Below are positions 11 through 61,108 of a DNA stretch of 64,000 bases, piece after piece. The stretch's first letter is position 1, and every line of letters starts with the position of its first letter. The stretch comes from Escherichia phage vB_EcoM_ESCO45, in the sequence record OM386661.1; one strand, written 5' to 3'. Position numbers and translations under genes: made by a program. Below the pieces are notes generated by a model that searched no databases, had not been told where the DNA came from, and worked only from the letters and a program-made list of their open reading frames with translations.

Positions 11-7958
<7,948 letters not shown>

Positions 7959-39346: not shown

Positions 39347-39370
39347 GAGGCTCCTACGGGAGCCTTTTTA
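39347..39370 (+). terminator. rho-independent terminator
   Basis: GGCTCC-tacg-GGAGCC followed by TTTTT. Confidence 0.6.
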
Positions 39371-43465: not shown

Positions 43466-43480
43466 TAAGTAATTTCTTAA

Positions 43481-43507
43481 AAGGCTGCTTCGGCGGCCTT
43501 TTTTATT
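43481..43507 (+). terminator. rho-independent terminator after rIIB-like gene
   Basis: AAGGCTGC-ttcg-GCGGCCTT followed by TTTTTATTT. Confidence 0.55.
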
Positions 43508-43534
43508 TGTATTTTGTGCAGAGTGCTGTATAAT
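43506..43534 (+). promoter_or_regulatory. sigma70-like promoter upstream of SLT gene
   Basis: perfect -10 TATAAT at 43529-43534 with TG two nt upstream; weak -35 TTTGTA. Confidence 0.4.
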
Positions 43535-43565
43535 TGTTGTTACGATAAACTAAACAGGAGAACCA

Positions 43566-44797: not shown

Positions 44798-45262
44798 ATG
44801 AACAACATTATCACGGTAGCACTGGACGTTACGGCAAACAAATCTGAAGTGGTTCGTAACATTATCAAGAACAACTTTGAGGGTAAAATCTTCCGCGCTG
44901 TCAATGTAAAAGCAGACGGTAACATCCGGGAGTATCGTGCTCTCTTAAATGTTAAAAAACATGTAAAAGGTGCTGGTTCAACGACTGCACACAAAGAAAA
45001 CCTGATGACTATCTATGATATGGGTAAGGCTTCAGAGTTAGGTGCTGAAGGTATCGTTAAAGAAGGTGCTCCGTATCGCTCTTTCAATCTGGAAACTGCT
45101 CTTATGCTTTCCTTTACAAGTGGTTCTAAAACAATCACTTATCTCTTTACTGATGCTGCAACGGTATCTGCTATTAAGGATAGCACTGTCAAAGCTGGCG
45201 TAGTTGCTGCTGCAAAAGCTTCTTCGATGGCTGCAAATATCCTTGCTAAAGTCCTCGGTTAA
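44798..45262 (+). CDS. hypothetical protein
   Basis: 154 aa ORF followed by strong terminator 45273-45296. Confidence 0.4.
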   Translation: MNNIITVALDVTANKSEVVRNIIKNNFEGKIFRAVNVKADGNIREYRALLNVKKHVKGAGSTTAHKENLMTIYDMGKASELGAEGIVKEGAPYRSFNLETALMLSFTSGSKTITYLFTDAATVSAIKDSTVKAGVVAAAKASSMAANILAKVLG

Positions 45263-45272
45263 GGTTAAGATA

Positions 45273-45296
45273 CAGGCTCCTTCGGGAGCCTTTTTA
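45273..45296 (+). terminator. rho-independent terminator upstream of dam
   Basis: GGCTCC-ttcg-GGAGCC followed by TTTTT. Confidence 0.65.
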
Positions 45297-45312
45297 AATT
45301 CAAGGAGTGCTA

Positions 45313-46197
45313 ATGAAACCAATGTTTAAGTATCTTGGTGGTAAAACAAGAATACTGAAAGAATATGAGCGTTTAGGTGTCTTTCCAGACAACTGTGAAA
45401 ACTTCTATGACCTGTTTTCAGGTGGTGGCTCAGTAGCTATCTGGGCTTATGATAAGTACCCAGAGGCAAAAATATTTATTAATGAAATAAACAAACATAT
45501 CATAGAACTTTACATAACCTTCAGGGATGATTACGACAAATTCATGGAAGAATTTCGACACTTGGCAAAAAGGTACTTAGCATTACCTATGCAGGAAGAG
45601 TACACTATGAAGGGGCAACGCCATAACCGATTACGTTATAAGATGTACTACAGTGTAAGAGATGAGCTTCTCACTCTTGGTGAATCTGGTGTCTATGACT
45701 ACAGATACTATGCCAGACAGTTTTTCCTTCAGAAACTAAGTTTTGGTGGTGTATGGCAGACAACTAAAGAGATGAAAGGGCACTATGCAACACCTTGCGG
45801 CTATTTGATGGAAGAAGAAGTTTTCTTTACAAAGACTGAAGAAGCACTAAAGGAGTTCTATAACTTCATCACTGATGAGAGGGTTGTCCTTAGCAGTAAT
45901 TCTTATGATATGGTTGATATAAAGCATGGAGAAGGGACAGTCATTTACTGTGACCCACCATATATAAACACCAACCAGAAATATGGCGCAAAGTTTGACG
46001 TTTCAATGTCTGTGAAATTGTGCAAAGACATATCTGATTGGGGGGAGTTAGGCTCTAAGGTGCTGATGTCAAACTCTCAGTGGGACGGATGGTCAAACCT
46101 AATTCCTGAAAATTTTCACTTGACAGAGGTTAATCATTCATACACAATACACGCACAGGGAAGCAAAGGTATTAACGAAGTAATTATCCACAACTAA
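45313..46197 (+). CDS. dam: DNA N6-adenine methyltransferase (Dam-like)
   Basis: KYLGGK motif near N-terminus, FSGGGSV SAM-binding loop, catalytic DPPY; start at ATG 45313 with RBS AAGGAG (track start 45307 is GTG). Confidence 0.75.
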   Translation: MKPMFKYLGGKTRILKEYERLGVFPDNCENFYDLFSGGGSVAIWAYDKYPEAKIFINEINKHIIELYITFRDDYDKFMEEFRHLAKRYLALPMQEEYTMKGQRHNRLRYKMYYSVRDELLTLGESGVYDYRYYARQFFLQKLSFGGVWQTTKEMKGHYATPCGYLMEEEVFFTKTEEALKEFYNFITDERVVLSSNSYDMVDIKHGEGTVIYCDPPYINTNQKYGAKFDVSMSVKLCKDISDWGELGSKVLMSNSQWDGWSNLIPENFHLTEVNHSYTIHAQGSKGINEVIIHN

Positions 46198-46208
46198 GGT
46201 ATAAAGTT

Positions 46209-47021
46209 ATGTCAAGTAGCATCAATGTAGCACTGAACGGTAAAGTTGTTAAAATGCACACTAAGATTATCAGTGTTGAGGATTTCCTTAACGAGAGACG
46301 CTACAAAGAAAATCCTCGTCAGCGAAATACACTGAAACGTCTGAAGAGTAAGCACCTCAATGGTGCTGTATCACCAGACCAAACAGTAGTCCATGTAGCT
46401 AAGTTTGGCAGTTCACTGTTTATTATTGATGGACACTCACGCCGAGAGGCATGGAAGGTAGGCAACCTGACACGACCAGAGAACCTGATTGCAGTTATAT
46501 ACCATGTGAACTCTATATTGGATGTCACAGACTTGTATACCCATTTTGACTCTGAATTAGCAAGAGAGAAGCCTTCTGAAGTTTATTACGGGAATATGAA
46601 GATGATTTCTTTCAATCCAGAATCAGAACTGATGAAAGCATCTTGGGCTACTGCCATTAAGTATGTTGCTGCATACTATGGTGTGCAACAGGTATCTAAC
46701 ACCGAAACAGTTAAATACCTTAATGATTTTAAGAATGAGTTGGAACAAATTGATTCTCTTGAAGTACAGCTTAAAGGTGTAGTAAACGCAAAACGCAAAT
46801 ACTCTTCTGGTATCCGTGCAGCAATGCTAATAACATTACGCCTATATGGTGATGCTGCATTCTCCTTTTGGGAGGATTATAACGATTACTGTGAAGGTAT
46901 GTCTAACAAATATGTTACAGAGTTATACCAACTAGCATTACAAGCTGGTCGCGGAGCACAGGCTGATAAGCTGTTGATGAATCAAGCAATTTCACTTGTC
47001 AACTATTACAGTCAAGAGTAA
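46209..47021 (+). CDS. ParB-like nuclease domain protein
   Basis: 270 aa; FIIDGHSRREAW resembles ParB/DUF262 DGxxR catalytic loop; directly downstream of Dam gene. Confidence 0.4.
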   Translation: MSSSINVALNGKVVKMHTKIISVEDFLNERRYKENPRQRNTLKRLKSKHLNGAVSPDQTVVHVAKFGSSLFIIDGHSRREAWKVGNLTRPENLIAVIYHVNSILDVTDLYTHFDSELAREKPSEVYYGNMKMISFNPESELMKASWATAIKYVAAYYGVQQVSNTETVKYLNDFKNELEQIDSLEVQLKGVVNAKRKYSSGIRAAMLITLRLYGDAAFSFWEDYNDYCEGMSNKYVTELYQLALQAGRGAQADKLLMNQAISLVNYYSQE

Positions 47022-47040
47022 TATACAGGCTCCTTCTGGA
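47016..47040 (+). terminator. rho-independent terminator after ParB-like gene
   Basis: GGCTCC-ttct-GGAGCC followed by TTTTCC. Confidence 0.55.
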
Positions 47041-47067
47041 GCCTTTTCCATTTTAGGAGATTGTTAA

Positions 47068-47415
47068 ATGACATTTAAAGAGTTCTGTCAAGCTACTTTC
47101 ATAATTGTTTTCTTAGTTGGGGCAGGTGTCTGGGGAGGATACTCTTACAGAGACTATCAAGTTGCTGAAGCTGAGCTAAACAATGAAAAGCTCATAAGTG
47201 TTGCTAAAGATGCTTATCAGGAAGGGTTAGCCACACTGAGCACCAATTACAAAAATGATTTGAAAGATGTGCTTGCTAAGAATAAGCATACAAAAGAGGT
47301 ACTAACATATGAAAAAACTAAGCCAGAGTTTTATAATGTTTGTGTTACTGATAACTATGTCAGGGTGTTCAACGAACAAAGTGAGCAGTACATTCAAAAA
47401 CTCCCAAGTAAGTGA
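47068..47415 (+). CDS. i-spanin (inner-membrane spanin subunit)
   Basis: 115 aa type-II membrane topology: N-terminal TM (FIIVFLVGAGVWGGY) then coiled-coil periplasmic domain; o-spanin gene embedded in +1 frame at 3' end. Confidence 0.45.
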   Translation: MTFKEFCQATFIIVFLVGAGVWGGYSYRDYQVAEAELNNEKLISVAKDAYQEGLATLSTNYKNDLKDVLAKNKHTKEVLTYEKTKPEFYNVCVTDNYVRVFNEQSEQYIQKLPSK

Positions 47416-47578
47416 GAGTGATAAGTACACTCAAGAAGAATCACGGTATATCATCAAAGGTAACACAGGCAGTGATGTAGCAGCAGCACTTGAGTTCTAT
47501 CGTGACGGCTTTTACCAGTGCACAATCAAAGCTAACAACCTTATTGACATGATTTTATTAGGGAATAAGCAGCAATGA
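47309..47578 (+). CDS. o-spanin (outer-membrane lipoprotein spanin subunit)
   Basis: 89 aa; lipoprotein signal with lipobox ITMSGC; starts inside i-spanin gene in a different frame; RBS AAAGAGGT. Confidence 0.45.
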   Translation: MKKLSQSFIMFVLLITMSGCSTNKVSSTFKNSQVSESDKYTQEESRYIIKGNTGSDVAAALEFYRDGFYQCTIKANNLIDMILLGNKQQ

Positions 47579-48588: not shown

Positions 48589-49374
48589 ATGGGTATTGTA
48601 AAAATCATCAATGGTGATATCTTTGACGCCTTTGATAAAGGTAAGTTTGACATCATTGGTCACGGTTGCAACTGTATGAATTTAATGGGTGCAGGTATCG
48701 CTGACAAGATTTCTAAACTTTACCCAAAAGCATATGAGACCGATACAGAAGTTTACATCTATGCAGGTGGTACAGGTCACAAACCCTGTGAAAATTTACT
48801 GGGTAATTTCTCTGTAGCACGTTTAAAACAAGGTCGTATAGCTAACCTTTACACTCAGCTTAAGACTGGTAAAGACGCCCGATACAGTGCTTTAGAGTCA
48901 TCTTTGAAGCAACTTAACAGATACTGTGAAGTTAACCAGTTGAAGAAAGTTGGTTTACCTATGATTGGTGCAGGTATCGGTGGACTTGACCCTCAAGCTG
49001 TCACAGTTATCATCAATCAGGTTATGAAGAGCGTAGATGTTTATCTGTATGTCTACGAGACAGAGATGTGCAACAAGTTACACTCAGGTTGGAAAAACTA
49101 CTGTGAACCAGAATACTTTGCAGGTGTAGTTGTGTCCACAGATAATGCAGTTACCCTCTTCAGACGAAGAAAAGGTAAGATACATCAAAGTAACCCTCCG
49201 GTTGAAAAGATGTCTCTAAGTAACGCTCTAGTTACCCACCTGTCGAAGAGCAATCACAGAATTGCTGTGACATTTGGTAGTGATGCCGATGCTTACATTT
49301 ATGCAAGAACTGATGAGGATATCAAGACGGTTTTCTCTTCACCAGAAGTTACCTTCTTAGACGCAAAGAGCTAA
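48589..49374 (+). CDS. macro-domain-like (ADP-ribose binding/processing) protein
   Basis: 261 aa; N-terminal INGDIFDA...DIIGHGCNCMNLMGAGIADKI resembles macro-domain Gly-rich ADP-ribose binding loop; C-terminal ~100 aa extension of unknown function. Confidence 0.45.
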   Translation: MGIVKIINGDIFDAFDKGKFDIIGHGCNCMNLMGAGIADKISKLYPKAYETDTEVYIYAGGTGHKPCENLLGNFSVARLKQGRIANLYTQLKTGKDARYSALESSLKQLNRYCEVNQLKKVGLPMIGAGIGGLDPQAVTVIINQVMKSVDVYLYVYETEMCNKLHSGWKNYCEPEYFAGVVVSTDNAVTLFRRRKGKIHQSNPPVEKMSLSNALVTHLSKSNHRIAVTFGSDADAYIYARTDEDIKTVFSSPEVTFLDAKS

Positions 49375-61075: not shown

Positions 61076-61098
61076 ATAAAAAGGCTCCCGAAGGAGCC
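61076..61098 (-). terminator. rho-independent terminator (minus strand) after endolysin gene
   Basis: GGCTCC-ttcg-GGAGCC on minus strand followed by TTTTATTTT. Confidence 0.55.
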
Positions 61099-61108
61099 TA
61101 TGAAGATA

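Follow-up and report, generated by a model that had tools for sequence, protein, structure and literature searches.

What does a gene lying directly behind a DNA methylase contribute to a phage? The question is raised by two genes, ORF1 and ORF2 (open reading frames, ORFs), in a 64,000-nucleotide (nt) stretch of Escherichia phage vB_EcoM_ESCO45 (OM386661.1), hereafter the window, which comes from a Felixounavirus (Felix O1-like, Ounavirinae; the best match is EC106, 96.7% over positions 44800-47500). The original prediction, made from the letters alone, described a Dam methyltransferase followed by a ParB-like nuclease-domain protein; its suggestion of an anti-restriction or nicking function for the pair was inferential. 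Our analysis confirms the coordinates and plus-strand placement of both genes. Judged by its sequence, ORF1 is an orphan D12-class N6-adenine DNA methyltransferase. ORF2 probably serves the methylase as a helper and not as a nuclease, because in many phages its relatives adjoin DNA methylases, which belong to five families. The two genes and the motifs discussed below, all on the + strand, are as follows.

45313..46197, +: ORF1, D12-class (alpha, Dam-family) N6-adenine DNA methyltransferase, 294 amino acids (aa), recognized with PF02086, phrog_56, TIGR00571, PADLOC and DpnM
45415-45435, +: ORF1 motif I, FSGGGSV, residue 35 onward
45952-45963, +: ORF1 motif IV, DPPY, residue 214 onward
46209..47021, +: ORF2, 270 aa, basic (isoelectric point, pI, 8.7), PHROG 2615, with a predicted ParB/sulfiredoxin (Srx)-fold N-domain (about residues 15-115) and a predicted alpha-helical C-domain (about 120-270)
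46311..46325, +: codons of the family motif 'NPRQR', N35-P36-R37-Q38-R39, at the position of the ParB 'NPxQPR' box (alignments A1, A2 and A5)
from 46419, +: ORF2 segment FIIDGHSRREAW, from the translation
46428..46442, +: codons of the D-G-x-x-R loop, D74-G75-H76-S77-R78, at the position of the ParB GxxR P-motif and the DUF262 DGQQR motif

The ORF2 family and its predicted fold

ORF2 is a real gene under purifying selection, from a large phage family that has no Pfam model. This follows from its match to phrog_2615 (annotated as function unknown; E 6.7e-71), from the 504 clusters of relatives (50% identity) that an exhaustive HMMER search finds at E <1e-3, 158 of them at <1e-10 and mostly 250-330 aa long, and from a ratio of non-synonymous to synonymous substitution rates (dN/dS) of 0.019 at dS 0.49 against phage JLBYU28. 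A word-indexed search with the single sequence had returned two close relatives only; the family emerged with the exhaustive search. Its members are mostly basic (median pI 9.1; above 8 in 52 of 61). Residues R39, D74 and R78 show no variation, and G75 gives way to serine in just two distant members; they belong to a wider conserved set comprising N35-P-R-Q-R39, H49-L50, K72-x-D74-G-H-T/S-R78, W82, Y110, D114 and D182.

Every structural statement made here about ORF2 rests on a predicted model, and the superfamily assignment on that model combined with motif position. The AlphaFold2 model, built from 61 sequences, has a mean predicted local distance difference test score (pLDDT) of 90.1 and a predicted template modelling score (pTM) of 0.81, and the top four Foldseek matches to it in the PDB are structures of ParB with cytidine diphosphate (CDP), with probability up to 0.99. 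Among viral models (BFVD), the matches beyond the family itself carry names such as ParB-like nuclease domain, DNA-sulfur modification-associated, GmrSD N-terminal domain and sulfiredoxin, and the structural neighbours include KorB and DndB-like proteins. The alpha/beta core of the fold is present in the model, with the D-G-x-x-R loop at a strand-to-helix junction (E69-74/H76-84), and the C-terminal 150 residues are helical. A manual mapping onto ParB pairs the elements one-to-one, 'ISVEDFL..NPRQR' with IKIADLRPNPYQPR and LFIIDGHSRREAW with YDIVAGERRFRAA. The resemblance of the FIIDGHSRREAW segment to a DGxxR loop, pointed out in the original prediction, goes beyond chance in this model, where conserved residues, among them the invariant D74 and R78, fall at the structural place of the ParB/Srx GxxR P-motif.

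The ParB fold was recovered in the predicted structure and not by profile comparison. Aligned with hhalign to four canonical ParB N-domains, the family profile reached a probability of 0.5%, with only 'NPxQ' aligned; against the PDB it found no related protein and no ParB. Pfam (E up to 0.1), NCBIfam, PADLOC and phmmer against the PDB gave no meaningful match to ORF2, and Pfam over 81 family members (E up to 0.01) gave nothing beyond two isolated sub-threshold matches. Because profile-level similarity to canonical ParB is undetectable, the assignment is structural and distant: the N-domain of ORF2 is predicted to adopt a ParB/sulfiredoxin nucleotide-binding fold, in a distant relationship to the known members. 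De novo TIM-barrel matches in the PDB were discarded as low-complexity coincidences. A canonical partition ParB was likewise rejected: there is no match to a helix-turn-helix (HTH) or ParB C-domain, no ParA-like gene occurs among the neighbours scanned, and the phage is lytic.

Thus, of the earlier description of ORF2 as a ParB-like nuclease, the fold stands as a prediction from structure and motifs, and the nuclease does not: Pfam, NCBIfam, PADLOC and a motif scan reveal no HNH, DUF1524 or EHxxP-type module and no nuclease family match. The word 'nuclease' comes only from the name that Pfam historically gave to the ParB fold. No restriction endonuclease or defence model of PADLOC matches ORF2, the methylase models matching ORF1 only. 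Fusions to a methylase or nuclease are absent among family members of up to 460 aa, as is a fused ParB-methylase form among the top 150 family representatives.

In its predicted architecture, ORF2 resembles DpdB, the partner of DpdA in 7-deazaguanine DNA modification. Both are stand-alone proteins with a ParB N-domain that carries D-G-x-x-R, a helical C-domain and a DNA-modifying neighbour, and their structural neighbours overlap in pNOB8 ParB, PadC and sulfiredoxin (PMC10164549 for DpdB). Unlike DpdB, to which it has no detectable sequence similarity, ORF2 has DGHSR rather than DGQQR, is partnered by a methyltransferase rather than a TGT-like enzyme and is carried by a phage, whereas DpdB belongs to a bacterial defence island and is a known ATPase. 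The succession of a QR box and D-G-x-x-R in the ORF2 model also recalls DndB (PF14072) and the DUF262/GmrS domain (PF03235) of GmrSD, BrxU, SspE and DndI. However, neither ORF2 nor any of the 81 members matches PF14072 or PF03235, the motif is DGHSR and not DGQHR or DGQQR, no dnd or ssp genes lie near ORF2, and it has no HNH/DUF1524 domain; the resemblance to DndB is only structural, to proteins named DNA-sulfur modification-associated.

The matches to KorB and DndB-like proteins raise the question of whether ORF2 might instead be a nucleoside triphosphate (NTP)-modulated, DNA-binding repressor that, in the role of a C-protein, times or limits the expression of its own cassette or of other phage genes. 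Its basic charge would suit such a function, and the ParB fold has been put to this use before, in DndB, an ATP-modulated repressor of a DNA-modification operon, and in the repressor KorB (PMC12704722, PMC10164549). We nevertheless consider a regulator unlikely, as Pfam detects no HTH in ORF2 and, among the 81 members, no more than a sub-threshold HTH_23 match in one, the 50-nt leader shows only a hairpin with no operator-like repeat noted, and the order of homologue and methylase genes is variable, the homologue lying upstream, downstream or two genes away.

Association with DNA methylases

The linkage of methylase and ParB-like genes that the original prediction had noticed in this one genome proves to be non-random and recurs with five methyltransferase families. 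We fetched 59 loci with ORF2 homologues, which fall into 30 clusters (<=70% identity), and scanned two neighbours on each side. A DNA methylase lies no more than two ORFs from the homologue in 16 of the 30 clusters. The families concerned are D12 (this phage), a gamma-like NPPF methylase (phage ESCO56), N6_N4 (PF01555; 11), MT-A70 (2) and PF05869 Dam (2). The methylase catalytic signature [DNS]PP[YFW] occurs in 17 of the 117 ORFs at positions ±1 to 2 but in only 2 of the 161 ORFs that lie farther from the homologue within those loci (Fisher p 1.4e-5); if the near set is restricted to adjacent ORFs, it occurs in 13 of 59 there and in 6 of 219 elsewhere (p 5e-6). A scan of genome contigs with a narrow peptide pattern gave two confirmed loci.

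The arrangement of the genes is often intimate. Overlapping start and stop codons join homologue and methylase genes in several loci, and seven loci contain a compact, often overlapping trio of an SNF2 helicase (~460 aa), the ORF2 homologue (~290 aa) and an SPPF-type N6_N4 methylase (~320 aa).

IMG/VR contigs L025, L034, L036, L039, L042, L059 and L060, roughly 2500-5900 in each: SNF2-homologue-methylase trio

These metagenomic loci repeat, with the ORF2 homologue in the middle, the SNF2, methylase and ParB components known from the DarB-type dyad of a methylase and a SWI2/SNF2 protein; Iyer et al. described the three fused in injected polyvalent anti-restriction proteins (PMC5512222). Unlike the DarB-type system, the genes here are separate, the cassette in the window has no SNF2 gene and the ParB domain is not DdrB-like.

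Felixounavirus itself provides a second pairing. Between rIIB and the SLT-like gene, some genomes carry three genes: a gamma-like methylase with an NPPF motif, which is labelled an rRNA methyltransferase in the records, a paralogue whose aligned part is ~27% identical to ORF2, and a 77-aa ORF. This second cassette is all-or-none, present in 10 of 214 records; EC106 and Tf have both cassettes.

L004 2333-4368 (ESCO56): second cassette, corresponding to a 100-bp gap at window 43466-43565 and not in the window

Farther away, gp111 of Klebsiella phage BIS47 (Vequintavirinae), a distant ORF2 homologue (hhalign 95.4%, E 1.8e-8; Foldseek 6e-6), is encoded directly upstream of a D12 methylase homologue. 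The linkage of the ORF2 family to methylases is therefore real but facultative.

Its facultative nature leaves room for the view that ORF2 has a role in DNA metabolism or anti-defence unrelated to the methylase, the two genes merely sharing the same hypervariable early-gene slots. The cassette region is variable, with at least two insertion slots, and many homologues sit without a methylase among replication and recombination genes. If the functions were independent, however, the enrichment of methylases would not be expected to be confined to positions ±1 to 2 of the same loci, nor two distinct methylase-homologue pairs to be inherited each as a unit, nor the genes to share start and stop codons; and ParB-methylase fusions link the two functions by independent evidence (PMC12704722). 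We judge independence improbable, if a little less so than a regulatory role. A speculative variant would have ORF2 act as a decoy that poisons host ParB-fold Type IV enzymes of the GmrSD/BrxU type, which would otherwise attack modified DNA; a ParB_n-only protein can be the partner of a ParB_n-nuclease protein in host Type IV systems (PMC12373910).

Those fusions (PF02195 with PF01555, PF13489 or PF05063, for example Bce_0392 of B. cereus) show the same pairing of modules in early or accessory regions of phages, and their methylase families overlap with those next to ORF2 homologues (N6_N4, MT-A70). Phages and archaea have an excess of fusions that join the ParB-CTPase fold to N6_N4, Methyltransf_23 or MT-A70; the role of these fusions is described as unknown, and some tested bacterial fusions of the ParB fold with S-adenosylmethionine (SAM)-dependent methyltransferases bind ATP (PMC12704722). 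ORF2 differs from them in being a separate gene, 11 nt from a partner of the D12 class, with a helical C-domain of its own and no match to PF02195.

On this basis we tentatively propose, without giving it quite even weight, that ORF2 is an NTP-binding, DNA-binding accessory of the methylase, a separate-gene counterpart of the ParB-methyltransferase fusions. We infer that it binds NTP and DNA, that it is coupled physically or functionally to the methylase, and that the phage is thereby better protected from restriction. ORF2 would help the methylase to load on, or to work along, phage DNA; progeny DNA modified in this way would escape host restriction. It would thereby parallel DpdB, whose ATPase DpdA needs in order to act. 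A broader proposal, about which we are more doubtful, is that PHROG 2615 and its ~500 relatives form a hitherto unrecognised clade of ParB/Srx-fold NTPases that are dedicated partners of orphan phage methylases of at least five families, each acting as an NTP-gated DNA clamp or loader. If that were true, the clamp or loader would lend methylation the speed or processivity to outrun restriction, and the clade would do for methylases what DpdB does for DpdA, which would explain why ParB-methylase fusions are frequent in phages.

Several points weigh against an accessory role. No methylase lies within two ORFs in 14 of the 30 clusters, for example in Kolesnikvirus and Rhizobium phage V1VFA-S, and the 30 clusters are phylogenetically non-independent. 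The loci were retrieved with a single peptide pattern, [DE]NPRQR[DN]T, and in the metagenomic loci the neighbouring genes were called by a simple, crude ORF heuristic. ESCO56 retains its methylase despite the loss of ORF2, though it has the paralogue cassette. To these are added the sequence-level results given above, in which neither the Pfam, NCBIfam, PADLOC and PDB searches with ORF2 nor comparisons of the family profile with the PDB and with canonical ParB gave a meaningful match.

The theme of pairing was known from the fusions; what the model adds is a predicted, divergent and stand-alone ParB/Srx-fold family without a Pfam model, linked to orphan phage methylases, so that a putative fold can now be assigned to a large unannotated family of phage proteins. 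The cassette offers the ParB-methylase pair split over two genes, in phages that can be plated on E. coli K-12; EC106, tootiki and JLBYU28, which have both genes, grow on this strain.

The methylase and restriction-site avoidance

The assignment of ORF1 to the Dam family, made in the original prediction, is well founded: it matches Pfam MethyltransfD12 (PF02086) over the full length of the model (1-253/253) with E 9.5e-22 and 78.4 bits (cut-off 22), with KYLGGK at 45328 and FSGGGSV and DPPY at the positions listed above. The FxGxG motif precedes DPPY, the alpha-class order also found, together with a D12-class fold, in DpnM, T4 Dam and E. coli Dam. ORF1 further matches phrog_56 (E 2.3e-49) and the PADLOC models MTase_II and oMTase, for Type II and orphan methylases. 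The closest solved relative is DpnM (2dpm), aligned over the full length at only E 3e-7, and in contrast to the shared fold the aligned stretches have low identity to the Dam family. The most likely start is the ATG at 45313, 6 nt downstream of AAGGAG. Compared with JLBYU28, the methylase has a dN/dS of 0.113 at dS 0.66.

As a name for a GATC-specific enzyme, 'Dam' is not established for ORF1. The score against TIGR00571 (E 1.3e-29, 103.7 bits) stays below the cut-off of 114.85, and that against the E. coli Dam equivalog NF008152 (30.2 bits) far below its cut-off of 441. The window contains no GATC where ~224 are expected, and GATC is absent from all Ounavirinae loci fetched, whether they carry the cassette or not; self-protection of the phage by GATC methylation was rejected on this ground. 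The ORF1 segment that aligns with the DpnM hairpin 'NGLYRVN' reads 'GGVWQTT'. This hairpin we take to be the GATC reader in Dam structures, in which case the arginine that presumably reads the first G would be a glutamine in ORF1. A genome free of GATC offers a GATC methylase nothing to act on, and the hosts are Dam+ anyway, so the target of ORF1 is probably a sequence other than GATC. A GATC 'Dam' annotation is best avoided for such methylases in a genome purged of every GATC.

The loss of GATC is part of a wider pattern. Of the 64 six-base palindromes, the window lacks at least 20, including GAATTC, ATGCAT and AGATCT (each 0 against 21 expected), and CCAGG occurs twice against 55 expected. 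The window displays extreme restriction-site avoidance, a trait already known from Felix O1-like phages and seen whether or not the methylase cassette is present. For these phages, the loss of GATC and of many 6-bp palindromes has been published (PMC4690856, PMC5477317). In the BASEL study, the Felixounavirus tested was 'remarkably sensitive' to several restriction-modification (R-M) systems (PMC8594841); given this sensitivity, gaining a methylase cassette is plausibly adaptive, on top of site avoidance.

With a pI of 5.9 the methylase is acidic, in contrast to ORF2 and most members of its family, which are basic; that a basic partner could supply DNA affinity to an acidic methylase is only a thought.

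A mobile cassette in Felix O1-like phages

The ORF1-ORF2 pair is a mobile accessory cassette. In the window it lies in the early region, behind genes for rIIB, an SLT-like protein, a PseT-like kinase and a phrog_2267 protein, and precedes the i-spanin and o-spanin genes and a macro-domain protein gene. Among 257 matching records, both cassette genes occur in 13 phage records; in most of the 257, the phrog_2267 gene adjoins the spanin gene directly, without the cassette. The two genes lie in different frames, separated by 11 nt from the stop of ORF1 to the start of ORF2, which has its own ribosome-binding site, and are probably co-transcribed. A scan of the 64-kb window found no tRNA genes.

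Both boundaries of the cassette, and both ends of a deletion within it, are marked by repeats:

45273..45294, +: left copy of a terminator-like hairpin, CAGGCTCCTTCGGGAGCCTTTT, at the left cassette boundary (terminator scan, repeat search)
46205..46210, +: left AGTTAT microhomology, junction of a 716-bp deletion (window compared with ESCO56)
46921..46926, +: right AGTTAT microhomology, junction of the same 716-bp deletion (window compared with ESCO56)
47026..47047, +: right copy of the terminator-like hairpin, CAGGCTCCTTCTGGAGCCTTTT, at the right cassette boundary (terminator scan, repeat search)

The bracketing repeat reads CAGGCTCCTTC(G/T)GGAGCCTTTT and consists of the GC-rich AGGCTCCTTCGGGAGCCT followed by a T-run. 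It occurs four times in the window (39347-39368, 45273-45294 and 47026-47047 on the + strand, 61079-61100 on the - strand), against none in shuffled sequences, and the empty site of phage VSe11 has a single copy. By analogy with the stem-loop cassettes of T4-type phages, the repeated hairpin may be the recombination substrate for gain and loss of the cassette.

The alleles also differ in divergence from their surroundings. Compared with L065, dS across the cassette is 0.5-0.66, roughly threefold the 0.16-0.19 of the core genes on either side, with 87% protein identity for the methylase and 98% for ORF2. From these sequence comparisons, the cassette alleles appear to be older than the genomic backbone or to have been exchanged between lineages.

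In ESCO56, 716 bp of ORF2 have been deleted between the AGTTAT copies (L002 3899-4003, against window 46205-46926); the methylase is kept and ~95 nt of the ORF2 3' end are left. ESCO56 is thus a natural ORF2-minus control. With isolates that carry both genes, the methylase only (ESCO56), neither gene (Felix O1 and Alf5, for example) or the second, paralogous pair, the sequenced phages contain natural controls, and the contribution of a ParB-fold protein to a DNA methylase is therefore directly testable.

The Felixounavirus tally of 13 records with both genes, one with the methylase only and none with ORF2 only also fits the logic of R-M, in which ORF2 would be a ParB-fold DNase or nickase that damages unmethylated host or competitor-phage DNA while the methylase protects the phage's own. 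A precedent is the nicking or DNase activity of Osa and of the ParB domain of the ParB-methylase Bce_0392, the latter nicking DNA non-specifically, according to work cited in PMC5512222. That very lack of sequence specificity speaks against such a pair, since site-specific methylation gives no protection from a nonspecific nuclease. Moreover, ORF2 has no dedicated nuclease module or motif, its homologues do without a nearby methylase in 14 of the 30 clusters, and a single conserved N-domain is combined with five methylase families whose targets are presumably different; the pattern in which ORF2 never occurs alone comes from a single deletion event. An R-M-like pair thus seems to us as improbable as a regulator, and we continue to favour, tentatively, ORF2 as a methylase accessory.

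Three further observations concern these records and the neighbouring genes. In Shigella phage Tf (OR980947), the match to ORF2 comes in two pieces, annotated as two hypothetical proteins, which indicates a frameshift or sequencing error. Two records labelled Campylobacter phage A132/A126 (MG065664 and MG065668) are ~90% identical to the Felixounavirus region, with the cassette present, and are probably mislabelled or contaminant assemblies. The macro-domain protein downstream (window 48589-49374, 261 aa; PF01661 7e-8, phrog_335), annotated elsewhere as an O-acetyl-ADP-ribose deacetylase, may counter ADP-ribosylation-based defences.

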